Shown: piece after piece, positions 16,734-57,158 of the stretch | How the letters are laid out: each line of letters begins with the position of its first letter | Position numbering within the stretch: position 1 is the stretch's first letter | Virus genome (UHGV): UHGV-0109393 | DNA length: 63,844 nucleotides | Strand: one strand, 5' to 3' | Origin: a virus | Notes under the pieces: model-generated | The model's database searches: none | Told to the model about the DNA's origin: nothing | The model's input: the letters and a program-made list of their open reading frames with translations, nothing else | Program-made: the position numbers and the translations under genes

Positions 16734-19700
16734 TTGGATAAACTACTTCATTCAATCAGTGAAGCCTCCAGCTTAGGCGAACTGATTGAAATTGTTAGTC
16801 GGTTGCATAAATTACGTGCTGTTGCGACCTTTGGCGTTAAGAAAGTCGATGGTGTCAGCATTCAAAAAACACGGCGGGCAGCAAACAACGCCGCAGTAGA
16901 GCTTCTTAATTCCCTTCCGCCCGGCTTCGATGGGGCGAAATTAACTGACGAACAACGTCAGATTCTTGCCGGGTATACCGGTGAAGGCGGCCTGACAGAT
17001 GGTGAGGGCAGCCAATACGAATACTACACACCACAGTTTATGGCTGAAGGTATATGGGATCTGTTTGCTGACTACGGTATTGATGGCGGGCACGTACTGG
17101 AACCATCAGCGGGCACAGGTATTTTCCAGGAGACAAAACGGCAGGGCATGATAATGACCAGCGCCGAACTATCTCCGATTTCCGGTCGAATAAACCAGCT
17201 TTTGCACCCGGAAGACGATGTGAATATCGGGGCGTTTGAGGCGCTGGCGGCGAAAGACGCAATGTATGACCACGCTGTTGGTAACGTACCGTTTGGTGAA
17301 GGGCGTTCCGGCGTTGCCGGGCTTGATCCGGCATATGCAAACGAGAAGAACGTTGGCAATTACTTTGTGCTGCGCACGATCGACAAGGTTAAGCCTGGTG
17401 GACTAATTGTATTGGTGGTGCCGAATGGCATGACCGATGGTACGAAATACAAAAAATTGCGCGATAAAGTCAGCCGTAAAGCGGAATTTTTGGGCGCACA
17501 TCGTATGCCTTCTGGTACGTTCAGCGAATCCGGTACAGATACAGTGGTGGACGTATGGGTATTGCGTAAACACCCGGAAACCTTCCTGGAGATGATCCCC
17601 GACACGGATGATGCAACGCTCAAGTCGGCAAACGTCCTTTGGGATACCTTCCTCAAAGGGAAATGGTTTACAACCGAAGGGAAGCGATTTGTTTACGGCG
17701 ATATGGAGCGTACCAGCTTCCGCAATACCCTGGTGGTGAAAAAGGACGGTCGTGTATCCAATGAGTCGATGAAAACCGCTCTATCGCGCCGCTTTGAAAG
17801 CCGCATTAATTGGGATTTGCTTGGCGTAACTACTCAGGCATGGCAGGGCGCGAAAGTGGGCGATAAACGCCTTGTAGGCGGCATCTGGCATGAGTTTGAT
17901 GGCCTGAAATGGGTCAAGGACGCGACAACCAAATCCTCCGCTCTTGATGTAAATCGATATGGTGTTACGACGTTTGGTGATCTGCAGATCGCGTTTCAGT
18001 CAACAAATGGCATTCTGGCGTTGTCATGGGACCAGATATCGGCGATCGCGTCCGACTATCCGTCGGTTATCAGTGATGAAGTAGCGGCAATGATTCGCTT
18101 TGCTGGCAAGCAGAGAGAAAAAGACAGAGAACGCGTTATGCGCGGCGCACTGATAGGGCAGTTGATCAACAAGGCGCTTGATAAGCGTAATCTGGGGGAA
18201 AATGTTGATGATGAACTTGCTGATGCCGCGCGCCTGGCGGAAGCCGAAATTGCGAAGTATGGTCCGCCGCACGCGATTAAGCTGAATGGGATTGCTGAAG
18301 CTGGCGCTAAAAACTGGATGACTTTCACTGGCAACGTGAAACAGGACGGCTCTGCTTCTGACCTCCTTGCTGGACGACTTGATGTAACGGATGGTGCTGC
18401 CGGTATTGACTTTACACGCCCGGAACAAGTTGTAACCCACCTTTTCAGTGACGTGGCACTTAATCCAATCACACTGGACGATTTTCGTGAGGCGTTTGCT
18501 GGCGAACTGCCAGGAGACGACGATGCTGCTCTGGAATACCTGGCGAAATTTGATGATATCGCTATTGATGGGTATGGCTGCCTGCTGCCGATGGACCGCG
18601 CCACCAGCGGCGATATTGCAACCAAAACAGCATTGCTGGTGGGCTGGCGTGATGCGTCAACAGGTGAGCAGAAAGCGAACTTTGAGCGTCAGTTGGCGAA
18701 AATCGAAGAGAAACGCATTTTCACGCCACTAAATAAAGTCACCGTTAATCTGAACGCCCGCTGGCTGGATCGCCGCTTGATAAAAGAGTTCCTGGCAGAG
18801 CAGGGCTATGACGAGTTTAAGTATACAGAACCCGACCTTAAGGTTGAGGACGGCATTCTGGTATCTCCGGACGATTACGAAGGTAAGGACGGGGTATTTA
18901 CTGGCTATCAACTACGAACCGTAAACGGCAAAAACGGGAATGAGTTCAAGAAGGCCAACAATAAAGACGGCTTCCTGAACCAGTTAGAAAACTACCTGAA
19001 CGGCATTAAACCGCGTGGGCAGAACGCTAACGAGTACCTGGATAAGATTGCTCAACTGGAAATTAGCTTCAACGACTGGTTACGCACTCACCCGCAGGCT
19101 GATCAGATAGCCCGCGACTATAACGACGCATTTAATGGCTTCATCCCGTTTACGCATTCTGACGCACCGCTTGGCCTGGAGGGGATTAGTGGGAAGCGCA
19201 TTCCTCTGACTTATCAGAATGAAGAAGTTCGGCGCTTGTCAGAAGATGGGCGCGGCATCATGGGATTTGGTACCGGGCTGGGTAAAACCACGACCGCGCT
19301 TGCGCTTGAGGCGTATAACTTCGAAACAGGTCGCACTAAACGCACGTGTATTGTTGTTCCGAAGGCGGTTTATCAGAACTGGTATCACGAGGCACAGAGC
19401 TTCTACAGTGCTGATGCCTTCGCCAATATGATGTTTATCGGTCTGGATGAAGTTCGTGATGACAGCGGAAATATTCTGACCGCGCCGGTGCTTGATGAAA
19501 ATGGCGAACCACGCCTCGACAGTAACGGGCAGCCTCTTACCCGAAATGTTGTGAAAGAGTCCGCCAGCGCCGTTATCGTTCAGCGCATGAACATGATCCC
19601 GTCGTCAAATTGGCGAACGGTCATCATGACAAAAGAGCAATTCGCGTCTATCCCGCTACGAGAAGAAACCATTGAGGAAAACTCACAGCAAGCGGTCTTT

Positions 19701-22700
19701 AATGCTGTGGAAATGGGGCGTCTTGACCTGGCATCTGGCAAACACCGTGACGCGCAGAAGAAGAACAAGATTAAGGACCAGGCCGCAAATACCGGTACAA
19801 CGAAGAAGCAGAATATCCCGTACTTTGAGGATATGAACTTCGATAGCGTAATTGCCGACGAAGGACATAACTACCGCAACTCCTTTAGCGCCGGGCGCGA
19901 AGCGGGGCAACTGGCATATTTGCCTAACCCGGCAGTATCCAAAATGGCCCGCGACATGGCTGTAAAAGCTGCGTACATGATGAAACGCAACAACGGGCGT
20001 GGTGTGGTTATGCTGACGGCAACACCGCTGGTGAACAGCCCGATTGATGCTTTCAACATGCTGTCTACTGTCATTCCGCAGGAAGAGTGGATGCGCATGG
20101 GTATTGTTACGCCGGATGATTTCGTTCGCGTGTTCGGTAAAACAGCCACAGTTCAGGTTCAGAAAATTTCCGGTGAGGTGGAAGAGAAGCAGGGACTGGT
20201 GGGCTTCCAGAACCTGGATGGTCTGCGTGGTATTTTCCATCGCTGGACTACTCTGAAGACTGCTGCGGACGTCGGGGCGACGGTAAAAATCCCTGATATT
20301 GTCGAGAATACCTTGCAGATCCCGATGACAGGAGAGCAAGAGGCCATTTACGAAGAACTTCGTAAGCGTGCACAGGAGTTAAGTAGTAAAGATGCGCTGA
20401 CGGTCGATGAAAACGGGCATATCACAAACGAAAAACCGGATGATTTCATCTTCTCCATCATCCGCGACATGGATAAGGTTGCTATAGATCCTGATCTGTA
20501 TGCCAGTGCGATTACATTCCAGTTCCCCGTTGAGCTTGCAGACAAGGTAAAAGCTATTGCTGATGCCCTGCCAAAAGTAGCTGGCGGTAAAGTGGCAGAT
20601 GATGCAGACGAGGCCGAAGAAGATGGCGCTGGTGGGCTGGTCAGTACGCGTACCAGCAAGGTAGTGAAGACCACCTTTAGCGAACATCCGTCGCATGTTG
20701 AAATACGTGCTGGCATTGAACTGGAAGCTGAAATACTGAAGGCCATTGCGGCTGCCGGTATTGATATGCAGCAGGTATCACACCCCATCCCGCCGAAGTA
20801 TGCCGCGCTGGTCGAAAACCTTCGTGAAGGTCTGAAGAACGGTAAACAAATCGTCTTCATTGATGAAAAAGCCCAGCACCAGAAGCTGCGCCGTATTATT
20901 GCCAGTGCACTGCAAATGCCGGAGCAGGAGATAGGCATTATCAATGCGACGACAGTTAGCCAGGCTGGCGGCGTCAAGCTGAAGAAGGTGAATAAGCCGA
21001 CTGAACCTACGCCAAATAAAAACGGTGAATACAAAGAAGGTGCATGGCAAACCTACTACAGCAAACTTGCCCAATATGAGGATTATCTCTCAGCTAAAAA
21101 TGATGCTGGCCTTGAGGGCATGGAAGGTATTGCCGCCGACTATAACGAAGGTCGCACGCGCATCATAATCTGTAACAAGAAGGCTGAAGTAGGTATTAAC
21201 TTGCACATCGGTACAACCGATATCCACCATCTGACACTACCCTGGACTCCTGCCAGTATCGACCAACGTAATGGGCGCGGCGCTCGGGTAGGCTCACCAC
21301 AAGAAAAGGTCAATGTTCACTACTATTGTGGCAAAGGCACATTTGATGACTTCCGTCTGGATACGCTGAAACGTAAGAAGGACTGGATCAATATGGTGAT
21401 GACCTCAGACATGTCAGAGATCGCCAATGGTGATGCGGATGACGCAGATGAACGCGCCATTATGCTGGCGGCAAATCCGGAAGAACGCCGTGCAATCATG
21501 AGTCGTCAGGCGCAAGAGCGTGAAGAACGTCTGAAACTGAAAGCCCTACGCGAAGCCAATAATGCTCTCGATAACTACCTGAAAGCGGCGAATGCTGCCG
21601 GGAAAGATATCGGCATGATGGAGACAGAACTGAAAAGCGCGATGGAGCAGGTAGAGCATTACCAGCGCAATCTTGACGACCTGATTAAAGCGGGGACGAA
21701 CAGGAACGGGCAGAAATATGTTCTGGAACAGTTGCGAGACTACAGAAAACGTGTGCGGGAGCTACGCTTTGCGATCACCAGAGCTAAAGACGCTGACACC
21801 GTTATGAAACGTTCTCGTGGTGATCTGGAACGTGCGATTAAAGCCGGGGTTCTGGAGCTTGATGCCGATGTATTGCAGAACCCACAGGAGTATGTACGCA
21901 CTGAGAAAAATATCTTGTTGCACAAGGGCAGCCATTATCGCGCGATCATCGATGAGAATCACAATACGACAGCAATTGTTCGTGTTACCGCCATTGATGC
22001 GGAAAGGGGCGGGTGTACGTGCCGCATATCCTGGCTGGATGTGGCTAGTCGTTACTCTCGTTCTCCGGGGACGGCATTATTTTTGCCCTTTAACCTGATA
22101 ATTGAATCGGTAACCTTTGAAGAGGGAGTTGCAGAATCGCGTGAAACAGCTGCACGTGGTGTTCAATGCCACCAGCTATCAACAACACTTACGCGCGATC
22201 AGTTCTATGATGCTATTCGCAATGGGGTAATGAATGTCACTGCCGGGAAGCCTGGTAGAGTATGGGGCGGTGGTTCAGCTATTAAATACTGGGCTTATCG
22301 CACAGATGATGGTCAGATCGCGCTGTCATCGACCTATGATGGCGTGATAGGCCAAAAAATCGGGCGAGCATCGGATATAGCACCTGAGCGATGGATATAT
22401 CCTGATGGCAACGACGAGGCGCTGAAGCGTGAAGTGGCAAAAATACAAGCCAGTGATAACCCGCTGAATGTCGTGGACGGTGAGGGATTCCTCCAGGCAT
22501 TGTATGGATATGATTACATCCAGGGAATGCAGGCATGGGGGTCACAGGCCACGATGGATGATGTTTCCCAGGAGTTTGAAAACTGGATGGCAGGGCGTGG
22601 TTTGTCCGGTCGCTCACTTAATAAAGTTACTTCTGAAGATATTCTTAGCCTGTTCCGTAAACCGTCCGGAGAAGGGCTGGAATCTTTCTGGAAGACCGTG

Positions 22701-23573
22701 GTGGCATACCGTTTATTCCAGGGCAGGATGAAAGCCTTTAGCAACACTGATGACATTGAACGGATGTTTAATCAGGTGAAGGCCGCGAAAATTACGGCGA
22801 AAATTGAGAAAACACGAGCTGCGCTGGTGGCCTGGCGCGATGCATTGTTTGAGCAATATAAATCACTCAGCGATGCCGATGGCTGGTCGGCATTGGAGCA
22901 GCTGGCTAATAATGGTGTCGATGGAGCGAAATTAGCCATTGTTCAGGCCGATAATCCTCTGGATTCGCCAGCAGCGCAGTGGATTAAGGTGGGGGCTGTC
23001 ATCAATGCATTTGATGAAAAACACATTAGTAAGGACGATTTTGCTGATGCTGTTTCTGTTAATCGCCTGGTAGAAATGGCCACCCGTCGCGCCCGTGAGT
23101 TGAAAGACGGCGACTATGTGAATGAGTTGCCGGATGCGCTCAAATCGGCAACGTGGCAGGACTATGTATCGCTGAAAAACGGCGGGGCCACTGAATCAGA
23201 GATCGCGGAAAGGCTTGAGCAGGCTGAAAGCAAAAGAGAAGAGCAGGCGGCAGAGGCTGAAGCCAGAGCTGATGAAGCGGCGAATGATGACTATATCATT
23301 GTGGTTAATGATAAGCCGATTCGCGCTAAGGCGCGTGTTCGCGGGCGCTGGTGGAGCGTCAGCGAAGACGTTGGCGCGGTTTATCTCATTGCCGACCAGC
23401 CAGGTTCCTCGACAATACGGAACGCCAAAGACGCGATTAAGAAGATTGGCGGGCGTTTCTGGAATTTTGAAGCAAACCCGGTTGCTGATGTGAACTTTGA
23501 CCGTCCGGCGTGGATGGTATCTACGCGTTACTCGGTAGATGAACTGCGTAAAATAATCGCCGATGCGGCCTAA
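16734..23573 (+). CDS. darB: DarB-like giant protein: N-terminal N6-adenine methyltransferase fused to a DExH helicase
   Basis: 2279 aa; methyltransferase motifs LEPSAGTGIF and GNVPFG; helicase Walker A GFGTGLGKTT, DEGH box VIADEGHNY, motif VI QRNGRGARVG. Confidence 0.8.
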   Translation: MDKLLHSISEASSLGELIEIVSRLHKLRAVATFGVKKVDGVSIQKTRRAANNAAVELLNSLPPGFDGAKLTDEQRQILAGYTGEGGLTDGEGSQYEYYTPQFMAEGIWDLFADYGIDGGHVLEPSAGTGIFQETKRQGMIMTSAELSPISGRINQLLHPEDDVNIGAFEALAAKDAMYDHAVGNVPFGEGRSGVAGLDPAYANEKNVGNYFVLRTIDKVKPGGLIVLVVPNGMTDGTKYKKLRDKVSRKAEFLGAHRMPSGTFSESGTDTVVDVWVLRKHPETFLEMIPDTDDATLKSANVLWDTFLKGKWFTTEGKRFVYGDMERTSFRNTLVVKKDGRVSNESMKTALSRRFESRINWDLLGVTTQAWQGAKVGDKRLVGGIWHEFDGLKWVKDATTKSSALDVNRYGVTTFGDLQIAFQSTNGILALSWDQISAIASDYPSVISDEVAAMIRFAGKQREKDRERVMRGALIGQLINKALDKRNLGENVDDELADAARLAEAEIAKYGPPHAIKLNGIAEAGAKNWMTFTGNVKQDGSASDLLAGRLDVTDGAAGIDFTRPEQVVTHLFSDVALNPITLDDFREAFAGELPGDDDAALEYLAKFDDIAIDGYGCLLPMDRATSGDIATKTALLVGWRDASTGEQKANFERQLAKIEEKRIFTPLNKVTVNLNARWLDRRLIKEFLAEQGYDEFKYTEPDLKVEDGILVSPDDYEGKDGVFTGYQLRTVNGKNGNEFKKANNKDGFLNQLENYLNGIKPRGQNANEYLDKIAQLEISFNDWLRTHPQADQIARDYNDAFNGFIPFTHSDAPLGLEGISGKRIPLTYQNEEVRRLSEDGRGIMGFGTGLGKTTTALALEAYNFETGRTKRTCIVVPKAVYQNWYHEAQSFYSADAFANMMFIGLDEVRDDSGNILTAPVLDENGEPRLDSNGQPLTRNVVKESASAVIVQRMNMIPSSNWRTVIMTKEQFASIPLREETIEENSQQAVFNAVEMGRLDLASGKHRDAQKKNKIKDQAANTGTTKKQNIPYFEDMNFDSVIADEGHNYRNSFSAGREAGQLAYLPNPAVSKMARDMAVKAAYMMKRNNGRGVVMLTATPLVNSPIDAFNMLSTVIPQEEWMRMGIVTPDDFVRVFGKTATVQVQKISGEVEEKQGLVGFQNLDGLRGIFHRWTTLKTAADVGATVKIPDIVENTLQIPMTGEQEAIYEELRKRAQELSSKDALTVDENGHITNEKPDDFIFSIIRDMDKVAIDPDLYASAITFQFPVELADKVKAIADALPKVAGGKVADDADEAEEDGAGGLVSTRTSKVVKTTFSEHPSHVEIRAGIELEAEILKAIAAAGIDMQQVSHPIPPKYAALVENLREGLKNGKQIVFIDEKAQHQKLRRIIASALQMPEQEIGIINATTVSQAGGVKLKKVNKPTEPTPNKNGEYKEGAWQTYYSKLAQYEDYLSAKNDAGLEGMEGIAADYNEGRTRIIICNKKAEVGINLHIGTTDIHHLTLPWTPASIDQRNGRGARVGSPQEKVNVHYYCGKGTFDDFRLDTLKRKKDWINMVMTSDMSEIANGDADDADERAIMLAANPEERRAIMSRQAQEREERLKLKALREANNALDNYLKAANAAGKDIGMMETELKSAMEQVEHYQRNLDDLIKAGTNRNGQKYVLEQLRDYRKRVRELRFAITRAKDADTVMKRSRGDLERAIKAGVLELDADVLQNPQEYVRTEKNILLHKGSHYRAIIDENHNTTAIVRVTAIDAERGGCTCRISWLDVASRYSRSPGTALFLPFNLIIESVTFEEGVAESRETAARGVQCHQLSTTLTRDQFYDAIRNGVMNVTAGKPGRVWGGGSAIKYWAYRTDDGQIALSSTYDGVIGQKIGRASDIAPERWIYPDGNDEALKREVAKIQASDNPLNVVDGEGFLQALYGYDYIQGMQAWGSQATMDDVSQEFENWMAGRGLSGRSLNKVTSEDILSLFRKPSGEGLESFWKTVVAYRLFQGRMKAFSNTDDIERMFNQVKAAKITAKIEKTRAALVAWRDALFEQYKSLSDADGWSALEQLANNGVDGAKLAIVQADNPLDSPAAQWIKVGAVINAFDEKHISKDDFADAVSVNRLVEMATRRARELKDGDYVNELPDALKSATWQDYVSLKNGGATESEIAERLEQAESKREEQAAEAEARADEAANDDYIIVVNDKPIRAKARVRGRWWSVSEDVGAVYLIADQPGSSTIRNAKDAIKKIGGRFWNFEANPVADVNFDRPAWMVSTRYSVDELRKIIADAA

Positions 23574-49672: not shown

Positions 49673-50251
49673 ATGCAGAAACAGAGTTATTGGGAGAAAC
49701 AGAGACAAAAAGCCATGCAAAAATTGGCTGACCCGGCCTGGCGAGAGGAACAAAGGGCAAAGCGCCTTCAACAAGCTCAACGCCAGCAGCAGCGAGCGAG
49801 AGAAAAAGCCGCATCGCCTGAATATCGGCAAAAGAAAATTGAAAAAGCAAAGCAATATGAACAGCGGAGAAAAGATAAAGCTGTATCCGCTCCGCCCAAA
49901 AAAACACGCACGTCACGCGGCCTGAAGGGCAGATCACTCACAGCCGATGAACGCCGGATACAGACCGCTATCGGTACTCTCCCCTGCATTGCCTGCCATA
50001 TTCACGGGCAACATAGCCCAGTAGTATCCCTGCACCATATCTTCGGGAGAACGGCAGAGAACGCGCATAAATATGTCCTCCCTTTGTGTAAATGGCACCA
50101 CCAGTACGCAGCGCCAGCCGAGGTCCGAGAACAATATCCCTGGCTGGTCCCTGTTCATGCTGATGGAAAAATAGGCGGAAAAGCAGATTTCATACGGCAC
50201 AATGCCGATGAAATGGCGTTGTATCAGATGGCGATTGAATTGATAAATTAG
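49673..50251 (+). CDS. ref: Ref-like HNH endonuclease
   Basis: 192 aa; basic low-complexity N-terminus plus HNH core (CIACHIHGQH...LHHIFGR...CKWHH). Confidence 0.7.
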   Translation: MQKQSYWEKQRQKAMQKLADPAWREEQRAKRLQQAQRQQQRAREKAASPEYRQKKIEKAKQYEQRRKDKAVSAPPKKTRTSRGLKGRSLTADERRIQTAIGTLPCIACHIHGQHSPVVSLHHIFGRTAENAHKYVLPLCKWHHQYAAPAEVREQYPWLVPVHADGKIGGKADFIRHNADEMALYQMAIELIN

Positions 50252-50267
50252 TTTTCTAACATTTTAA
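50246..50267. promoter_or_regulatory. Operator-like site
   Basis: AAATTAGTTTTCTAACATTTTA, overlapping the ref stop. Confidence 0.45.
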
Positions 50268-50582
50268 GTTGAATTGTAAATTTCCCCGATGTACATTCAC
50301 TACCGATTGGCACACCGGTCAACTTTTTGAGACAAACTGTTTAGTTTTTCGTATTATTGCCGCCGCTATACCTATGGCGGTGCAATATAGGTGGCTGAAA
50401 AGCCCCCGTTGACTCACGGTGTTCCAGCCTTTATTGCGCCGCCACCAGACCGTGGAACAGTCAATGGCGGCTCCGAAAGCAAGGAGTCACTACACTATGA
50501 ACAACTACAGTCTTTTACCATCACTCTTCGTCCACCACTCACGCGATAATCTGCATTCTTTACTCGCGCTGGGGGTGTCAAA

Positions 50583-50750
50583 ATGACGGTTCGCTACCTC
50601 AACTTTCAAATCAAGAACATTACTGGCGGTTGCTATGACTGGTTTGTCACTCTCGGAAAAGAAGTGATCACCGGGAAGCTGGATGAAGTGAAAGCTAAAG
50701 CAATGGCCTACGCCTGCAAGCAAGCCCGGAAGAAATCCGCCAAAGCATAA
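50583..50750 (+). CDS. Candidate small protein (55 aa) upstream of immI-like module 2
   Basis: ATG preceded by GGGGGTG; MTVRYLNFQIKNITGGCYDWFV...; not in the ORF track (under 60 aa). Confidence 0.3.
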   Translation: MTVRYLNFQIKNITGGCYDWFVTLGKEVITGKLDEVKAKAMAYACKQARKKSAKA

Positions 50751-50855
50751 AATACTGACTGTTGCGCCCTGGCATTATCGTGGGGTATATTTCTACGGCA
50801 CCTTAGAAAAACGGGTGCCGGGATTGGAACCCCGGATAATGCAAAAGGCGACACA

Positions 50856-50877
50856 GACGCCGAAAGCGTCTTTTTTT
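50856..50877 (+). terminator. Rho-independent terminator
   Basis: GACGCcgaaaGCGTC followed by TTTTTTT. Confidence 0.7.
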
Positions 50878-50899
50878 GTGTCATGCCATCGCACAGCCA

Positions 50900-51035
50900 T
50901 ACGTAGCGTTTAGCTCAGAGATCAATGGTAGTGCTGGCTGGGCTGCCGAAAGGCAGGCCGGTTCCCTTTTGCGCCGGTAGTTCCAACCCAGTCAGTGCTA
51001 CCGCCATTGAGATTGGAACCTCACGCGGTAGCTCC
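50900..51035 (+). ncRNA. Candidate c4-type antisense RNA with target sites (module 2); boundaries approximate
   Basis: GATTGGAACC at 50821 and 51011 with its complement GTTCCAACC at 50980; second pair GCTACCG (50997) / CGGTAGC (51026); tRNA-like TAGCTCAGAG stretch; immediately upstream of the icd-like RBS. Confidence 0.3.
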
Positions 51036-51062
51036 TTAAATTAGCAAAAGGAGGCTGCCATT

Positions 51063-51278
51063 ATGGCTACTACCCCTACCCCAACTCATTCTGAATTTAT
51101 CTGGCGTTTCTATTCCTGCCAAAAACACCTCTATATCTGCGTCATGGCTGCTACCGAAGCAGAAGCGCGCTCATACCTTCCCGAAGAACCCTGCATTTTT
51201 GCTGCTCGCTTCACTCTTGATGCGATGGAGATCCTCAATTACTGGAATCTGCCGATGAACTGCGTGGAGGTGCACTGA
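51063..51278 (+). CDS. Icd-like small protein (paralogue 2)
   Basis: 71 aa; paralogue of 14937..15161; stop overlaps the ant start. Confidence 0.45.
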   Translation: MATTPTPTHSEFIWRFYSCQKHLYICVMAATEAEARSYLPEEPCIFAARFTLDAMEILNYWNLPMNCVEVH

Positions 51279-52204
51279 TGAATCTGTCCATCTCTCAAAA
51301 AGCGACAATGACCAGCATTGAGATCGCGGAACTGGTAGGTAAGCGCCCTGATAACGTTAAACGCACCATTGAACACCTGGCGGAACGGGGCGTAATATCT
51401 TTTCCTCAAATTGAGGAAAAGCCCACCGCAGGCCGCCCGGCGAGCTATTACGTCTTCGAAGGCGAGCAAGGCAAGCGCGATAGTATTGTCGTCGTCGCGC
51501 AGCTCTCTCCCGAATTCACCGCCCGGCTGGTGGACCGCTGGCGCGAACTGGAGAATGCCCGGGTACAGTTAAAATCAAAAGCCGAAATTCTGGCTGAAAT
51601 GGCGCAAATGCATCTTGAGCATGAACGCCGGATCAACGCCGTAAATGCCCAGGTAGCCGAGGTATCAGCACAAGTATCGATGGTCGCTGAAACACTCGAG
51701 CAAATAAAGAAAGGCAATATTCCGGAAGGCTACATTGGCTACCGCCAGCTGGCGGCGAAATGTGGCCTGACTGAAGCCAAATGCCGAAACCTGGTCAACG
51801 CTTACCGGATTCCCACCGATACGCATGAGTTTTTAACTCCCGATGGTTTGCTTGCGCGACGCTCCATTGTGGCCATGGCCCCCTTCCGGAAAGCCTTTAA
51901 GCAGGTGATGTCGGAGGCAGAACCACGCAATAAACGCTGGTATCATCCAAAGATGGGGATGTTTCAGGCAATCCACCATCCTGTGCCTGAAAGTCCAAAG
52001 GCAAACCTGTCGTTGCATACCGCCAGAGAGAGGATTAAAACAGGCTATGCAATCGTATGCCGTCGAGCATCCTGGCCTGAAGGTGTATGGGTGTGGCCCG
52101 AAGGTGGATCACGAAAGCACTGGCGCACTATCCGGGATGGGAAAATCCATGCGATTGATTTAGCTCCAGAGGATGTTGTTGCTACGGACTGGATTGTTAG
52201 TTAA
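51278..52204 (+). CDS. Antirepressor, Rha/Ant family (paralogue 2)
   Basis: MTSIEIAELVGKRPDNVKRTIEHL; the first ~100 and last ~80 residues are near-identical to 15161..15868, with a different middle. Confidence 0.7.
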   Translation: MNLSISQKATMTSIEIAELVGKRPDNVKRTIEHLAERGVISFPQIEEKPTAGRPASYYVFEGEQGKRDSIVVVAQLSPEFTARLVDRWRELENARVQLKSKAEILAEMAQMHLEHERRINAVNAQVAEVSAQVSMVAETLEQIKKGNIPEGYIGYRQLAAKCGLTEAKCRNLVNAYRIPTDTHEFLTPDGLLARRSIVAMAPFRKAFKQVMSEAEPRNKRWYHPKMGMFQAIHHPVPESPKANLSLHTARERIKTGYAIVCRRASWPEGVWVWPEGGSRKHWRTIRDGKIHAIDLAPEDVVATDWIVS

Positions 52205-52212
52205 TTACTGTT

Positions 52213-52234
52213 GCCCCGGCCTGTCCGGGGCTTT
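52213..52234 (+). terminator. Rho-independent terminator
   Basis: GCCCCGGCCtgtCCGGGGC followed by TTT; same hairpin type as after ant paralogue 1. Confidence 0.6.
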
Positions 52235-52263
52235 AACTACTAAATAACCGGATTCTCCGCACG

Positions 52264-52548
52264 ATGAAGAAAATAGATTTCACTTACTCTGCTGCCACAA
52301 TCCAGCGACGTTTCAGTCTCATAAGGGAAGTGGAACTATCAAAAAACTGCTATCAAATTCTACTGGATGAAGAGTTTTCACTGATGGTTATAGCAGAAAA
52401 ATTGGCTATGCCGAATGACCGGCACAAGGTCATAGCCAGCCTGGATCTGGTGACAAACAGATACTGGGAATACGAGGAACTACTTGAAGTTGGCTTGATA
52501 CGCGAGATGATAGAACAGGCTGTTCCCCTCCACTTACAGCAACCATAA
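52264..52548 (+). CDS. Hypothetical protein
   Basis: 94-aa ORF. Confidence 0.35.
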   Translation: MKKIDFTYSAATIQRRFSLIREVELSKNCYQILLDEEFSLMVIAEKLAMPNDRHKVIASLDLVTNRYWEYEELLEVGLIREMIEQAVPLHLQQP

Positions 52549-52684
52549 TTGAAAGGTCTTAACGATAGTCTGCCACGAATAGTTACTTCCACTGCCTAAA
52601 GTTATTTAATTGCATTACAAAGTGTAAATTAGTAACATTAGAATCTCACACAGCACTATAACTATATGTTTTTTATGTAAAAGG

Positions 52685-53044
52685 ATGATAATCGTGGCTA
52701 CTAAAATTAAACTTGAAAACCCTCAAACTGGCGAATCAATCACCGGTTTTTATGGTTTTTCCTGGACTACATTCTTGTTTGGTGCTTTTCCAGCTTTGTT
52801 CAGGAAAGACTTTATAACTTTTATTGGGGTATTTGTAGTGATGCTGATACTGGCATTCCTCACAGCCGGAATTGGCCCGTGGATTGCCTCATTTATCTGG
52901 GCGTTCATGTATAATAAATATTTCACCGTAAATAAGATAAAACAAGGCTTCATTTTTGCTGGTTCTCACACAGAAAATGAGTTGGCTGCTAGCAAGCTAG
53001 GATTGTCATTAAATCAAAACAACTGCAAAACTATTACCGAGTAA
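52685..53044 (+). CDS. Small integral membrane protein (AT-rich moron)
   Basis: About 116 aa with two hydrophobic helices; likely GTG start at ~52695; locally AT-rich. Confidence 0.4.
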   Translation: MIIVATKIKLENPQTGESITGFYGFSWTTFLFGAFPALFRKDFITFIGVFVVMLILAFLTAGIGPWIASFIWAFMYNKYFTVNKIKQGFIFAGSHTENELAASKLGLSLNQNNCKTITE

Positions 53045-53083
53045 AGCCAAAAAGCAGGCTTAATAGTAAGCCTGCTATGTCAA

Positions 53084-53917
53084 TCACGAATCTCTCTGAC
53101 AATTCAGAAACATAAACGCCCGCTTGTCTGTTAAATCCGTAACATAATACTCTCTCATGCCTGTAGGTTTTATTCTACGAGCATATACAAACTTATGAAC
53201 TGGTTGTTTTTCCCCATAACTTACATCAGTCCTAAATTCATCAACCACGCTACCATCTTTTTCAGTTTCCTTTCTCACTAGCTGATTTTCTAATACAGGC
53301 TTTGATTCGTCCATGCCACTAAAAGCATCCTGACCTGTGCTGTTGCCTCGGTTTCCGCGTGGCAAATCCCATGAAAAATAAGTGCCATAGTCAGTAATCA
53401 CACGATCCCATGTTCCGGAATCCCCCATATAGTTAGAACGCTCCCCCTTGTAAGTTACAGCCACCTTACAGGCATACGTTTCACCATTATTTTTTTTATC
53501 ATGTCCAGCCATGCTTGCAGGAGTTGCAGGGGAATTATGAATAGATGCGCTTACATCATCCTGCGTTAATTCCTCAACTGGAGCAAATTCATATATGGGT
53601 GTGCCGAGGCTATTTAAATATAACTTATATCTAACCCTAAGCGCACTTCCATCAGAGAATTCATACGTTCCCAGACATTGGAGCTTATTTTTTTCTCTTA
53701 TCTCATTGATCTGATTATAAGCATCAATTACAGAGATTGCTTCCTGATCGTCCTTCAGCAGTTCATTATAATCATCGATTAACATCTGTCTGGTTTTAGG
53801 GGCATTACAGTCAATTTTGCTAAAATCATAAGCAAAGGCAAATGTGGGAACAGAGAGAGCAACAACAGTAGCAAGTATTGTTGAGGAACATCTTTTTCCA
53901 TTTTTTATAAAAAACAT
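53084..53917 (-). CDS. Secreted/periplasmic protein with signal peptide (AT-rich moron)
   Basis: Start at MFFIKNGKRCSSTILATVVALSVPTFAFA (GGAG RBS), predicted cleavage after AFA; about 278 aa; AT-rich codon usage unlike neighbours. Confidence 0.5.
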   Translation of the reverse strand: MFFIKNGKRCSSTILATVVALSVPTFAFAYDFSKIDCNAPKTRQMLIDDYNELLKDDQEAISVIDAYNQINEIREKNKLQCLGTYEFSDGSALRVRYKLYLNSLGTPIYEFAPVEELTQDDVSASIHNSPATPASMAGHDKKNNGETYACKVAVTYKGERSNYMGDSGTWDRVITDYGTYFSWDLPRGNRGNSTGQDAFSGMDESKPVLENQLVRKETEKDGSVVDEFRTDVSYGEKQPVHKFVYARRIKPTGMREYYVTDLTDKRAFMFLNCQRDS

Positions 53918-54263
53918 TTCATTAACTCCATACTTTACCATCTTAGCCGCGAGCGCGGTCCCTAAAACCCTTAACTTCACTACCCCGTCCTTCATGTAAA
54001 CAAAATGAGGTTTTATGTTATAAAAACAATCAACTACATCAACATGATTTAGGCCAAGTTTCGGTCAAATAATAAAATCCTCAAAAAGTGGTTGACACTA
54101 TTCTGGAAATCACAAACTGCACATAATCCATCGCGCTAACGGCTCCCGTTGAAGGTTCTTTTGACGATTAACTTTCAGCCGAAGCGCGGTAGGGAGTCAT
54201 AACGCCAAAGCAGGCCGCCATGTGCGGCCTTTTTTTGTATCCGTCATCCGTGGAGGAAGGACA

Positions 54264-54917
54264 ATGGAAAAGATCGCAATATTCAGCCTGACCACCAGCA
54301 AGCCTCAAATGCTCACTGCAATACTGAAAGACGGTGCTCTCATTATTAACGAAGTAAAACCCCTTCCCGCGTCAGCATTGGAGCAAAAGCAAAAAATTCC
54401 TCCAGCTATAGCAGCCCTGCGGAAAAGCAAATTTAAGGTACTGGTAGACGAAATTACGCCAACGATCTCCGCTGGCACCGGAGCAAGCCAGGTGACTCTC
54501 AAGACCCGTCATGCCGATGGCAGAGCAGCAATCATCGTCGGGATGGAAAGATACAGAGAGTTAAAACTCCAGAAGCTATTATCCCTGCCGCAAAATAACA
54601 AAGGTGCTTTCGAAATCCCCGACTCTATCGTTGATACCGAATACAACGGTAACGGAGAAGAAGTCTACAGGGTGAACTGGCAGGATATCAGGCCGGAGCA
54701 TATTCTGATGATCCTGTGTTGCTACGCGACCGTATACCACAACGTTGCCAGTGCGGATTACGTAGAGCAGATGATCGGTACAGTCGAGAAAGAGCAAAAA
54801 ACAGGCATACTCGCTTCGTTCCTGTCCATTATTGGGCATGAAAAAGTTAAAGCAGGCACCTCCCAGCCAAAGTCACTGACTGGGAAAGAAGTTGATGAAG
54901 ATACCGTGATACTTTGA
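54264..54917 (+). CDS. Hypothetical protein
   Basis: 217 aa from the ATG with GGAGGAAGG RBS. Confidence 0.45.
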   Translation: MEKIAIFSLTTSKPQMLTAILKDGALIINEVKPLPASALEQKQKIPPAIAALRKSKFKVLVDEITPTISAGTGASQVTLKTRHADGRAAIIVGMERYRELKLQKLLSLPQNNKGAFEIPDSIVDTEYNGNGEEVYRVNWQDIRPEHILMILCCYATVYHNVASADYVEQMIGTVEKEQKTGILASFLSIIGHEKVKAGTSQPKSLTGKEVDEDTVIL

Positions 54918-55245
54918 TCACATTAGTAGCTTTGTTAACTCCCTCAATACCAGGTAGAAGAGTAACAAAAATATTGACGCCAGTATTTGAGTGGTCAATG
55001 AGGCGTTCATAAACAGATCAATAAGCTTTAACAATTCTAGAATAACATCCATGTCATTCACTCCGTTTAATTTTTAATCTAATGCCAGCAAATGAAGCTG
55101 GCCCCCGCATAAAGATTAATGAAAGTCACTTGTCACCAGTGAGGGGATTTATGAACCACATCCCCCTGAACTGGTGGCCTGTCTGTTTCTCGCATTTCAC
55201 ACCCTGCATACAGTTTCCACCAGGTTATGACTGAGAGGCTTTGTT

Positions 55246-55575
55246 ATGGGCTATAGCAGACTCGACGATAGGTACATTGAAGACGATATTTTTCGTGCGC
55301 TGTTTCACCAGGAAATGATTAAGCGGGTATCGGAGTATCACTCTGATAATTTCCAGTACACGATAAAGATTGATGAAGTATATCGTTCAGACCTTGCAGC
55401 CTACAGGGCGTATGGCAATGCAGATTTGCGCTGGGTATTCCGGGTGCTGGTGGGCCATGAGTCAGAAATGGAAGAAATGCCCGCCGGGACCACGTTAACT
55501 CTTCCTGATGTCGCATGGCTGAGGAACAAGATCCGTGATTACGCGAGCGCGGAACCGGAGATAGAAAATGCCTGA
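55246..55575 (+). CDS. Hypothetical protein
   Basis: 109-aa ORF coupled to the next gene. Confidence 0.4.
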   Translation: MGYSRLDDRYIEDDIFRALFHQEMIKRVSEYHSDNFQYTIKIDEVYRSDLAAYRAYGNADLRWVFRVLVGHESEMEEMPAGTTLTLPDVAWLRNKIRDYASAEPEIENA

Positions 55576-56764
55576 TTTCCTGAAAAACCAGGACGGGCGA
55601 TATATCACTGATGGCCTGTCCTCTAAGGACTTCACGCGTTTATTCGACCTTATCAGTAAAGAACAAACCCGTAAGCGCCGACAAGCTCACCGGACGCTGA
55701 CGCCCGGCAGACTGAGGAACAAATCCGCCGAAGATATTCTCAAGTTGGGGAAGAAGAAAGGCGGCACGTTCTTTACGCGAGACGATCTGAAAGGCTTCGA
55801 AAAGCTACGGAGTAAAACGCGCGAAAAATATGACAGTAAGACGGCAGGCATCACATACGCCCAGCTGGTGGCATCCAGCCAGGCTATCGATATTAAGCGT
55901 GCAAATAACGCCGTGGATGACGGATCTGGTATCAAAAGAGCTACACCCGTATCTCTTCGCCACAATGTGATTAATATCCGCGTAGAAGCATCGGATATAT
56001 CCGTCCACCAGCACCATATCGTCCGTATACGCTTTGAAGAATGGGATCAGATGGTCGATGACATCGCAGAAGACGATAAATCAGCTCTGAAAATCACTAA
56101 ATCACTGTGCGCCGGGCGGGTGTCTTTCGATTGTGACTGTGGTCGTCATCAATACTGGTATCGTTACATTGCTACTGCGGGTAACTTTGCCCTGGCCCCG
56201 CCAAAAGAATACGCCTATCCAAAAGTTCGTAACCCTAAGCTACAAGGCGTCGCCTGTAAACACGTGATCCACTCAATGACGCGGTTACAGTCCGCCAGTT
56301 GGCAAATGAGTATTGCTCGTGCGTTACAAAAGGCCGCAACGCAAATTGCATTTGGTGACGATCGCCGCCGTACAACTAAACACTTCTCAAAAGAAGACGA
56401 GAAGGAGTTTAATCGCAATCGTAGCAGTAAAACGAACGTTGAAGCCGCCAAACGCGAATGGAGGCTCTATCAGAAACGCCAGGCCGCTTTAAGCACAAAA
56501 CTGGCAAAGGACAACGGGAAGATTGACAAGCTACGTGACCAGCTGACCAGGGCCAGAAAGTTGTCCGATGCACAGAAAAAACGGGCAGCAGCAAAAGAAG
56601 CAGCCTTGCAACGTGAGAAACAGAAAAACAAGGAGCTTCAGCAACGCCTTGCCGATCAATTCGCACTGAAGAAGCAAGCGTTCATTGATGCACTGGTCAT
56701 GGCAGGAACGTCACCTGAGCAAGCTGAAAAAATGTTTATGGAGTACGTGAAGAAAGGTTCTTGA
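55568..56764 (+). CDS. SWIM zinc-finger-like protein with basic coiled-coil C-terminus
   Basis: 398 aa; FDCDCGRHQYW...GVACKHVIH fits the CxCxnCxH SWIM pattern. Confidence 0.45.
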   Translation: MPDFLKNQDGRYITDGLSSKDFTRLFDLISKEQTRKRRQAHRTLTPGRLRNKSAEDILKLGKKKGGTFFTRDDLKGFEKLRSKTREKYDSKTAGITYAQLVASSQAIDIKRANNAVDDGSGIKRATPVSLRHNVINIRVEASDISVHQHHIVRIRFEEWDQMVDDIAEDDKSALKITKSLCAGRVSFDCDCGRHQYWYRYIATAGNFALAPPKEYAYPKVRNPKLQGVACKHVIHSMTRLQSASWQMSIARALQKAATQIAFGDDRRRTTKHFSKEDEKEFNRNRSSKTNVEAAKREWRLYQKRQAALSTKLAKDNGKIDKLRDQLTRARKLSDAQKKRAAAKEAALQREKQKNKELQQRLADQFALKKQAFIDALVMAGTSPEQAEKMFMEYVKKGS

Positions 56765-56798
56765 TTGACAACAAAGGCGGTCATACAGACCGCCAAAC

Positions 56799-57158
56799 TC
56801 ATACACCAACCAGGCTTTCAAGAGGAATGCCAAACTGGGAATGTAAACGACGAATCATAGGTAACGTTAAATTTCGTGTCCCATTTAGCACTTCGTAAAC
56901 ACGATTTGACTTACCAATCGCCGGTTCCAGATCCTTCACGGTCAGCCCTTGCTGTTCCATACGGAATTTAATGGCTTCAATAGGTGATGGTGGCTCAATT
57001 GGGTAATGCTTTTTCTCGTACTCTTCAATGAGCAGGCACATTACTTCAAAGAAATCGCCTTCCGGTGTGTTCATTTCCGGTTCGTTATCGAACATCGGTT
57101 CGACCGCACGCAGTGCGGCCTCATAATCTTGTTCTGTACGGATAGGTTTAATGTTCAT
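56799..57158 (-). CDS. higA: HigA-like antitoxin (HTH-XRE)
   Basis: 119 aa; C-terminal HTH LTVKDLEPAIGKSNRVYEVLNGTRNLTLPMIRRLHSQFGIPLESL; directly downstream of the toxin. Confidence 0.7.
   Translation of the reverse strand: MNIKPIRTEQDYEAALRAVEPMFDNEPEMNTPEGDFFEVMCLLIEEYEKKHYPIEPPSPIEAIKFRMEQQGLTVKDLEPAIGKSNRVYEVLNGTRNLTLPMIRRLHSQFGIPLESLVGV

Follow-up and report, generated by a model that had tools for sequence, protein, structure and literature searches.

E. coli and Salmonella commonly carry phage-plasmids of the P1 and D6-like kinds. The virus genome analysed here, a stretch of 63,844 nucleotides that we call the window, is judging by its sequence a D6-like phage-plasmid of the P1 family: positions 50000-57000 match Escherichia phage D6 with 97.7% identity at 98% coverage. 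In this part of the window lies an AT-rich segment with two convergent genes, which a preliminary description, made from the letters of the DNA, had called a moron for lysogenic conversion. Why does a phage-plasmid carry such a segment between its conserved genes, and what do the two proteins do for it? Our best explanation, to which we give a probability of about 0.5 when the anatomy of the locus and its function are taken together, is that the segment is a replaceable accessory cassette and that its proteins would exclude superinfecting phages. The coordinates of the features discussed below are collected in Table 1.

Table 1. Features of the cassette and its surroundings, in window coordinates.
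Feature	Position	Strand	Basis
isrK, between the C4-like match at 50370-50449 and C4	50798-50876		Rfam, 62.5 bits
C4 antisense RNA	50921-51008		Rfam, 76.7 bits
Replaceable AT-rich accessory cassette, between pmgF and the mat upstream region	~52535-53937		blastn breakpoints and lowest GC
Gene for predicted small inner-membrane protein, 116 aa, phrog_4915	52694..53044	+	ORF, PHROG match, hydrophobic segments, homologs, dN/dS
Terminator-like hairpin, 10-bp stem then TTTT	53053..53076	-	terminator scan; just past the stop codon of the exported-protein gene, between the convergent genes
Gene for predicted exported two-domain protein, 277 aa, D6 orf79, phrog_13054	53084..53917	-	ORF, PHROG match, D6 identity
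C-terminal domain, predicted beta-barrel, residues 147-277; rare unnamed family with invariant Cys150 and Cys273 and the motif YFSWDLPRGNRGNSTGQD	53087..53479	-	
Variable low-complexity linker, residues 117-146	53480..53569	-	pLDDT <50, indels, dN/dS 0.29-0.38
SimB-like domain, residues 30-116, with conserved Cys37 and Cys81	53570..53830	-	
Predicted signal peptide, residues 1-29, cleavage AFA|Y	53831..53917	-	sequence features; aligns with signal peptides of P1 SimB and relatives
In-frame scar, first ~19 codons of deleted gene X (~205 aa, secreted)	53938..53995	-	stub aligns to the X 5' end in L022
Candidate sigma-70 promoter, leftward, GTGTCA-18-TATTAT, 9/12	54069..54098	-	promoter scan; intergenic, common to all cassette types

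Genomic setting and base composition

In the D6 record the local gene order is ref, two small ORFs, icd, ant (Rha-type), pmgF, orf80, orf79, mat, 26 and 25, the last two being tail genes. That record labels orf80 hypothetical and describes orf79, on the opposite strand, as 'putative superimmunity accessory function protein; similar to P1 gene simB'. Since Rfam places C4 antisense RNA and isrK ahead of these genes, the immI region lies directly upstream of the locus. A second C4-like antisense RNA match is found at 50370-50449 (+), ~470 nt upstream of C4; its 40.2 bits are under the gathering score of 45, and it may represent an antisense regulator of immI that has been duplicated or has degenerated. 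Elsewhere in the window, an ORF of 2279 aa at 16734-23573 (+) may encode a DarB-like protein, a guess from its size and the P1-family context.

The base composition of the segment sets it apart. Across 52550-54000 the GC content is 0.386, whereas stretches of the same size (1451-bp windows) average 0.481 with an sd of 0.025; equally low values occur in just 0.3% of the 1451-bp windows, and the global minimum begins at 52601. The drop in GC that had been judged by eye is therefore confirmed on computation, and the segment is the lowest stretch of its size in the window. A 300-bp profile shows the same trough as the larger windows, with 0.36-0.40 inside, ~0.49-0.55 on the left flank and 0.47-0.50 on the right. 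GC at third codon positions is 0.40 in the membrane gene and 0.32 in the gene for the secreted protein, compared with 0.52-0.54 in ant, mat and genes 26 and 25.

Alleles of the cassette

Where does the segment begin and end, and what do related elements carry in its place? In blastn comparisons with other D6-like plasmids, homology is lost at ~52489-52534, at the 3' end of pmgF, and regained at 53938. The whole segment is present in 53 of the 119 matching plasmids, and others have different inserts between the same flanks; roughly half of the otherwise near-identical D6-like plasmids hold non-homologous genes in place of the cassette. In PLSDB, at least 80% of the secreted protein is found in 56 plasmids, the membrane protein at 90% identity or more in 56 enterobacterial plasmids, and an alternative gene, which we call X, in ~66 plasmids.

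All the alleles that we tabulated lie between pmgF and mat. The window and D6 have the membrane gene and a gene in which a SimB-like domain is fused to a second domain. Three other loci (L003, L004 and L006) have X, which encodes a secreted protein of ~202 aa, together with a gene for a secreted protein of 130 aa. L005 has a single gene for a 291-aa protein with the same C-terminal domain and a different N-domain. L022 and L023 have X, the SimB-like fusion and the membrane gene, and L007, a distant 88-kb element, has X and the SimB-like fusion without the membrane gene. This variety of alleles, together with the plasmid counts given above, marks the pmgF-mat site as a multi-allelic hot spot for exported proteins. 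We regard it as highly probable that pmgF and mat flank a recombination hot spot, that the AT-rich 1.4 kb at this site is an accessory cassette, and that its overall anatomy is as laid out in Table 1.

The protein encoded by X is ~202-205 aa long and secreted, with conserved cysteines (its gene is at 2260-2868 in L004, 5382-5990 in L007 and ~4350-4981 in L022); the gene for the 130-aa protein is at 1847-2239 in L004. Neither protein has a match in the phage collection, in PADLOC or among P1 SimA, SimB and SimC.

The label of moron suits the segment, as it is found in ~53-56 D6-like plasmids and unrelated genes for secreted proteins stand between the same flanks in others; some relatives carry the cassette and some have had it replaced. 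Like phage morons in the sense of Hendrix and Juhala, it is extra DNA between conserved genes, has a deviant composition, is present, absent or replaced in relatives, and ends with a terminator hairpin. Unlike them, it occupies a multi-allelic hot spot rather than being a simple insertion, and its own promoter is only a candidate.

Another small variable spot of low GC (~0.40) lies at 54979-55186, between mat and gene 26. The window has short ORFs only at this spot, L003 and L005 have a RelE/ParE-HigA toxin-antitoxin pair, and L021, L022 and L023 have other HTH or Gp49 genes.

A non-coding element at 54092-54240 (+) is found just upstream of mat (ATG 54264). It begins at TTGACA. A long stem (about 54128-54193) follows, an intrinsic terminator (54212-54230 plus T7) immediately precedes the mat ribosome-binding site, and the predicted fold has -42.1 kcal/mol (z -3.2). 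The element hardly varies between the window and L007, a distant relative in which the coding genes are only about 72-74% identical. It has no Rfam match at E up to 1, and within the phage collection it is found in D6 only. Conceivably, the element controls mat, as an sRNA or as a leader of the attenuator type.

The membrane protein

The rightward gene of the cassette encodes a protein of 116 aa. A longer ORF, 52685..53044 (+), would give 119 aa from an ATG at 52685, but the GTG at 52694 appears to be the better start, because AAGGA lies 8 nt upstream of it and the homologs are 116 aa long. The product has ~40 hydrophobic residues (between about 22 and 75), broken by R40-K41-D42 and by G62-I-G-P65. 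The small membrane protein of the preliminary description is thus encoded by a genuine ORF, and hydropathy predicts two, possibly three, membrane segments. The protein is 100% identical in amino acids to D6 orf80 and matches the phrog_4915 HMM with E=2.7e-47 over 5-118; this family is listed as of unknown function.

Homologs with 54-57% identity occur in jumbo phages such as 121Q (some records name them 'HrgC') and in bacterial chromosomes. The phrog_4915 family is solitary in jumbo lytic phages, Lactobacillus phages and many chromosomes, and a chromosomal homolog of the membrane gene was found alone between housekeeping genes. Some sources give homologs the Pfam name DUF2628 (PF10947). The membrane protein has no match to DUF2628 even at E up to 10, and a homolog reaches just 12.4 bits against a Pfam gathering threshold of 23 bits. 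A promoter scan found no consensus promoter for the gene, which may be read through from ant-pmgF.

Are the two ORFs of the cassette real genes? Compared with diverged alleles (dS 0.6-0.8), dN/dS is 0.04-0.09 for the membrane gene and 0.12-0.14 for the exported-protein gene. Because this is purifying selection, we conclude that both are.

The predicted exported protein: start, signals and a deleted neighbor

The leftward gene has a GGAG (53926-53929) 8 nt before its ATG at 53917. The protein matches the phrog_13054 HMM with E=3.4e-191 over 1-277, again a family listed as of unknown function, and is 97.5% identical to the D6 'putative superimmunity accessory function protein'. Its N-terminus has the features of a signal peptide: an n-region with K5, K8 and R9, an h-region at about 11-25, and A-F-A before Y30. 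These calls, like those of the membrane segments, were made by sequence rules and by alignment to P1 SimB and its relatives. The protein is therefore predicted to be exported by a Sec-type signal, with a mature mass of ~28 kDa. The convergent signal-peptide protein of ~278 aa with its own ribosome-binding site that had been described earlier is present as stated, at 277 aa. Scans of both cassette proteins against Pfam, NCBIfam and PADLOC gave no match.

The reading frame is open beyond this ATG, and an ORF of 303 aa starting at 53995 was considered and rejected, as its first 19 codons belong to deleted X. The evidence comes from L022, where 53938-53995 aligns to the 5' end of X and the alignment then jumps to the 3' end of X and the start of the simB-like gene; X is intact in L004, L007 and L022. 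In the distant alleles P0006 and P0008, similarity to the exported protein starts at or just before ATG 53917. Since the upstream codons read as the stub of deleted X, we take the start at 53917 as settled. Comparison of the alleles shows that X was deleted in the allele shared by the window and D6, that an in-frame stub of 19 codons was left, and that the exported-protein gene thereby became promoter-proximal.

The candidate promoter has its -35 within sequence that is invariant over six alleles. It is a consensus match only, and promoter-like sites in the cassette region are no more numerous than in shuffles. There is no site in the window for the P1 C1 operator (ATTGCTCTAATAAATTT) with up to 3 mismatches.

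The scar of a deleted neighbor and the lack of family annotation in Pfam, NCBIfam and PADLOC might suggest that the cassette is decaying hitch-hiker DNA that has lost any current function. However, this reading is contradicted by dN/dS of 0.04-0.14 with dS up to 0.8-2. Moreover, the reading frames are intact in dozens of plasmids, and the motifs of the C-terminal barrel are invariant across distant relatives. We therefore consider decay extremely improbable.

Two separable domains

What kind of protein does the leftward gene encode? A homology search with 53084..53917, as had been proposed, gave a match to P1 SimB over residues 8-116 (46% identity over 112 residues, E=1e-27), with both cysteines kept. 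The match covers the N-terminal domain only. Conservation is high over the last ~130 residues. In a full scan, 1.84 billion representative proteins yielded only 33 relatives, in two separate sets. The first consists of free-standing SimB-like proteins of 105-120 aa; the second holds about a dozen proteins in which the C-terminal domain either stands alone (145-170 aa) or follows another N-domain. In sister elements a different N-domain, which is helical, precedes the barrel. Compared with L021 (5001-5819), dS is 0.20 in the N-domain and 2.1 in the C-terminal domain, which points to a recombination breakpoint inside the gene and to an exchange of domains between alleles. Purifying selection is seen on each domain. 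The SimB-like domain and the barrel are separable modules.

The AlphaFold2 model of the full-length protein is poor (pLDDT 57), while the C-terminal domain alone, modelled with a more diverse alignment, reaches a pLDDT of 89. The models suggest a cystatin/NTF2-like fold for the SimB-like domain and a beta-barrel for the C-terminal domain. Matches in BFVD are to uncharacterised phage proteins only, and a sequence search of the PDB gave no significant match. A lead to T4 Spackle (E=0.37 with signal peptides included) was dropped, as it vanished once the signal peptides were removed. A scan of viral contigs with a single SimB-family protein found nothing.

The cysteine pairs C37/C81 and C150/C273 would fit periplasmic disulfides. 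Such pairs in both domains are also what one might expect of a periplasmic inhibitor or immunity protein that acts against an incoming enzyme or toxin, rather than against DNA entry, and that serves host fitness by lysogenic conversion. Candidate targets would be lysozymes or transglycosylases, proteases, colicins and T6SS effectors. A free-standing barrel homolog in a chromosomal islet is also in line with an inhibitor; it is found with a membrane protein and a lipoprotein-like gene, and the islet adjoins a fimbrial operon. A comparison with periplasmic lysozyme inhibitors of the PliC/MliC type gave no specific match beyond the generic small-barrel fold. We consider an inhibitor of this kind unlikely.

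On other phage-plasmids too, members of the barrel family have accessory positions. One gene stands after lydB-darA-ssb in a P1-like contig, one after a spanin-like gene on a ParM-bearing contig, and another is on a ParM plasmid. The first two neighborhoods, together with the position of the cassette between pmgF ('putative morphogenetic function') and mat (maturation control), raise the alternative that its genes serve the lytic cycle as periplasmic or membrane accessories to lysis, injection or morphogenesis. Against this, the replacement of the cassette by non-homologous genes in so many near-identical D6-like plasmids makes a core function impossible, its base composition is foreign, and simABC is non-essential in P1 (PMC10695390). 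A lytic role is thus very unlikely.

Free-standing SimB-like genes are found alone in Enterobacter chromosomes with no phage context. Because of these genes, the SimB-like domain cannot be regarded as specific to exclusion. In one Enterobacter sp. chromosome (L014, 2974-3336), a lone SimB-like gene (111-120 aa) has a gene for a periplasmic peptide-binding protein on one side and a LysR regulator on the other.

Relation to P1 Sim

How far does homology to SimB carry over to function? P1 Sim is thought to stop superinfecting phages from injecting their DNA into the cytoplasm (PMC8546580), and exclusion in P1 has been assigned to sim/simC (PMC2409434). In the P1 record SimB is only a 'putative accessory', and the products of simA, simB and simC all start with signal-peptide-like segments. 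The cassette resembles simA-simB-simC of P1 in several respects: both are non-essential accessory loci of P1-family elements that encode small proteins with signal peptides, and the two share SimB homology. They differ in content. We found no SimC homolog (BLASTP against the exported protein, E=0.89; tblastn over the whole window, best E 1.8) and no SimA homolog (tblastn over the whole window, best E 1.9), and the SimB-like module of the D6-like window is fused to an unrelated beta-barrel. They also differ in position. P1 sim adjoins c4 in immI and diverges from it, whereas the exported-protein gene lies ~2 kb past C4, with icd, ant and pmgF in between, and is convergent with these genes. By its lack of SimC and SimA and by its position, the cassette falls outside the P1 Sim system, though it may work in a similar way.

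The closest relatives are D6 orf79/orf80 (NC_050154) and D6-like plasmids of the pYU39_89 type, which have the same genes, order and flanks as the window; a few substitutions and indels separate the window allele from D6 orf79/orf80. For D6-like variants it has already been reported that simA and simC are missing beside a simB homolog, and that sit and the vicinity of simB are the two regions that diverge (PMC6799933). In our case, sit is outside the 63,844-nt window. The fusion architecture, the barrel family with swappable N-domains, the cassette boundaries and the deletion scar are in neither the D6 record nor that paper (PMC6799933).

Proposed function of the cassette

We propose a role in superinfection exclusion: located in the lysogen's periplasm, the exported protein would keep D6/P1-like phages that have adsorbed from delivering their DNA, which is also what has been reported of P1 Sim. 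SimC may be replaced in this role by the barrel, and at the inner membrane the membrane protein would put up a further barrier to entry, independent of the first. Because SimC is absent and SimB-like genes also occur outside phages, we assign an exclusion function to the cassette only tentatively, at rather less than even odds. Of the lysogenic-conversion functions first offered for this region, superinfection exclusion has weak support from the 46% identity to SimB; nothing supports surface modification or virulence.

Do the two proteins work together? T4 encodes the superinfection-exclusion proteins Imm, in the membrane, and Sp, in the periplasm. The cassette is like this pair by analogy only, as a small membrane protein and an exported periplasmic protein on a phage; its proteins have no sequence or fold relationship to Imm or Sp. 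By the same analogy, the membrane and exported proteins could form one two-component unit in which the membrane partner anchors or receives the periplasmic protein. The genes are adjacent and equally AT-rich, their counts in D6-like plasmids are the same (56 and 56, with many accessions in common among the samples listed), and alleles as diverged as 81-88% amino-acid identity (L021 and L022) still have both. However, convergent genes cannot form one operon, and L007 has the SimB-barrel fusion without the membrane gene. Conversely, the membrane gene has neither a SimB nor a barrel partner in jumbo phages, a RepL contig and chromosomes, and co-occurrence within one closely related lineage may simply be linkage. 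A two-component unit is therefore improbable.

A broader possibility is that the pmgF-mat hot spot is a diversity locus for an unrecognised class of modular periplasmic anti-phage proteins. Each would combine a disulfide-bonded barrel 'effector' with interchangeable SimB-like or helical N-modules, and would block DNA delivery by binding periplasm-exposed injection machinery, such as the Sit transglycosylase/tape-measure protein. A target in Sit would fit the divergence of sit and the simB vicinity between D6-like variants (PMC6799933). We regard this extension as speculative and unlikely.

The exclusion functions that govern which phage-plasmids can co-infect a cell or displace one another have barely been characterised. 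If the cassette has no part in exclusion, the present analysis adds one more annotated hypothetical moron. If, however, it does determine exclusion, otherwise near-identical elements would fall into 'exclusion groups' according to their cassette allele, and a rare beta-barrel and the SimB-like domain would gain their first functional handle.
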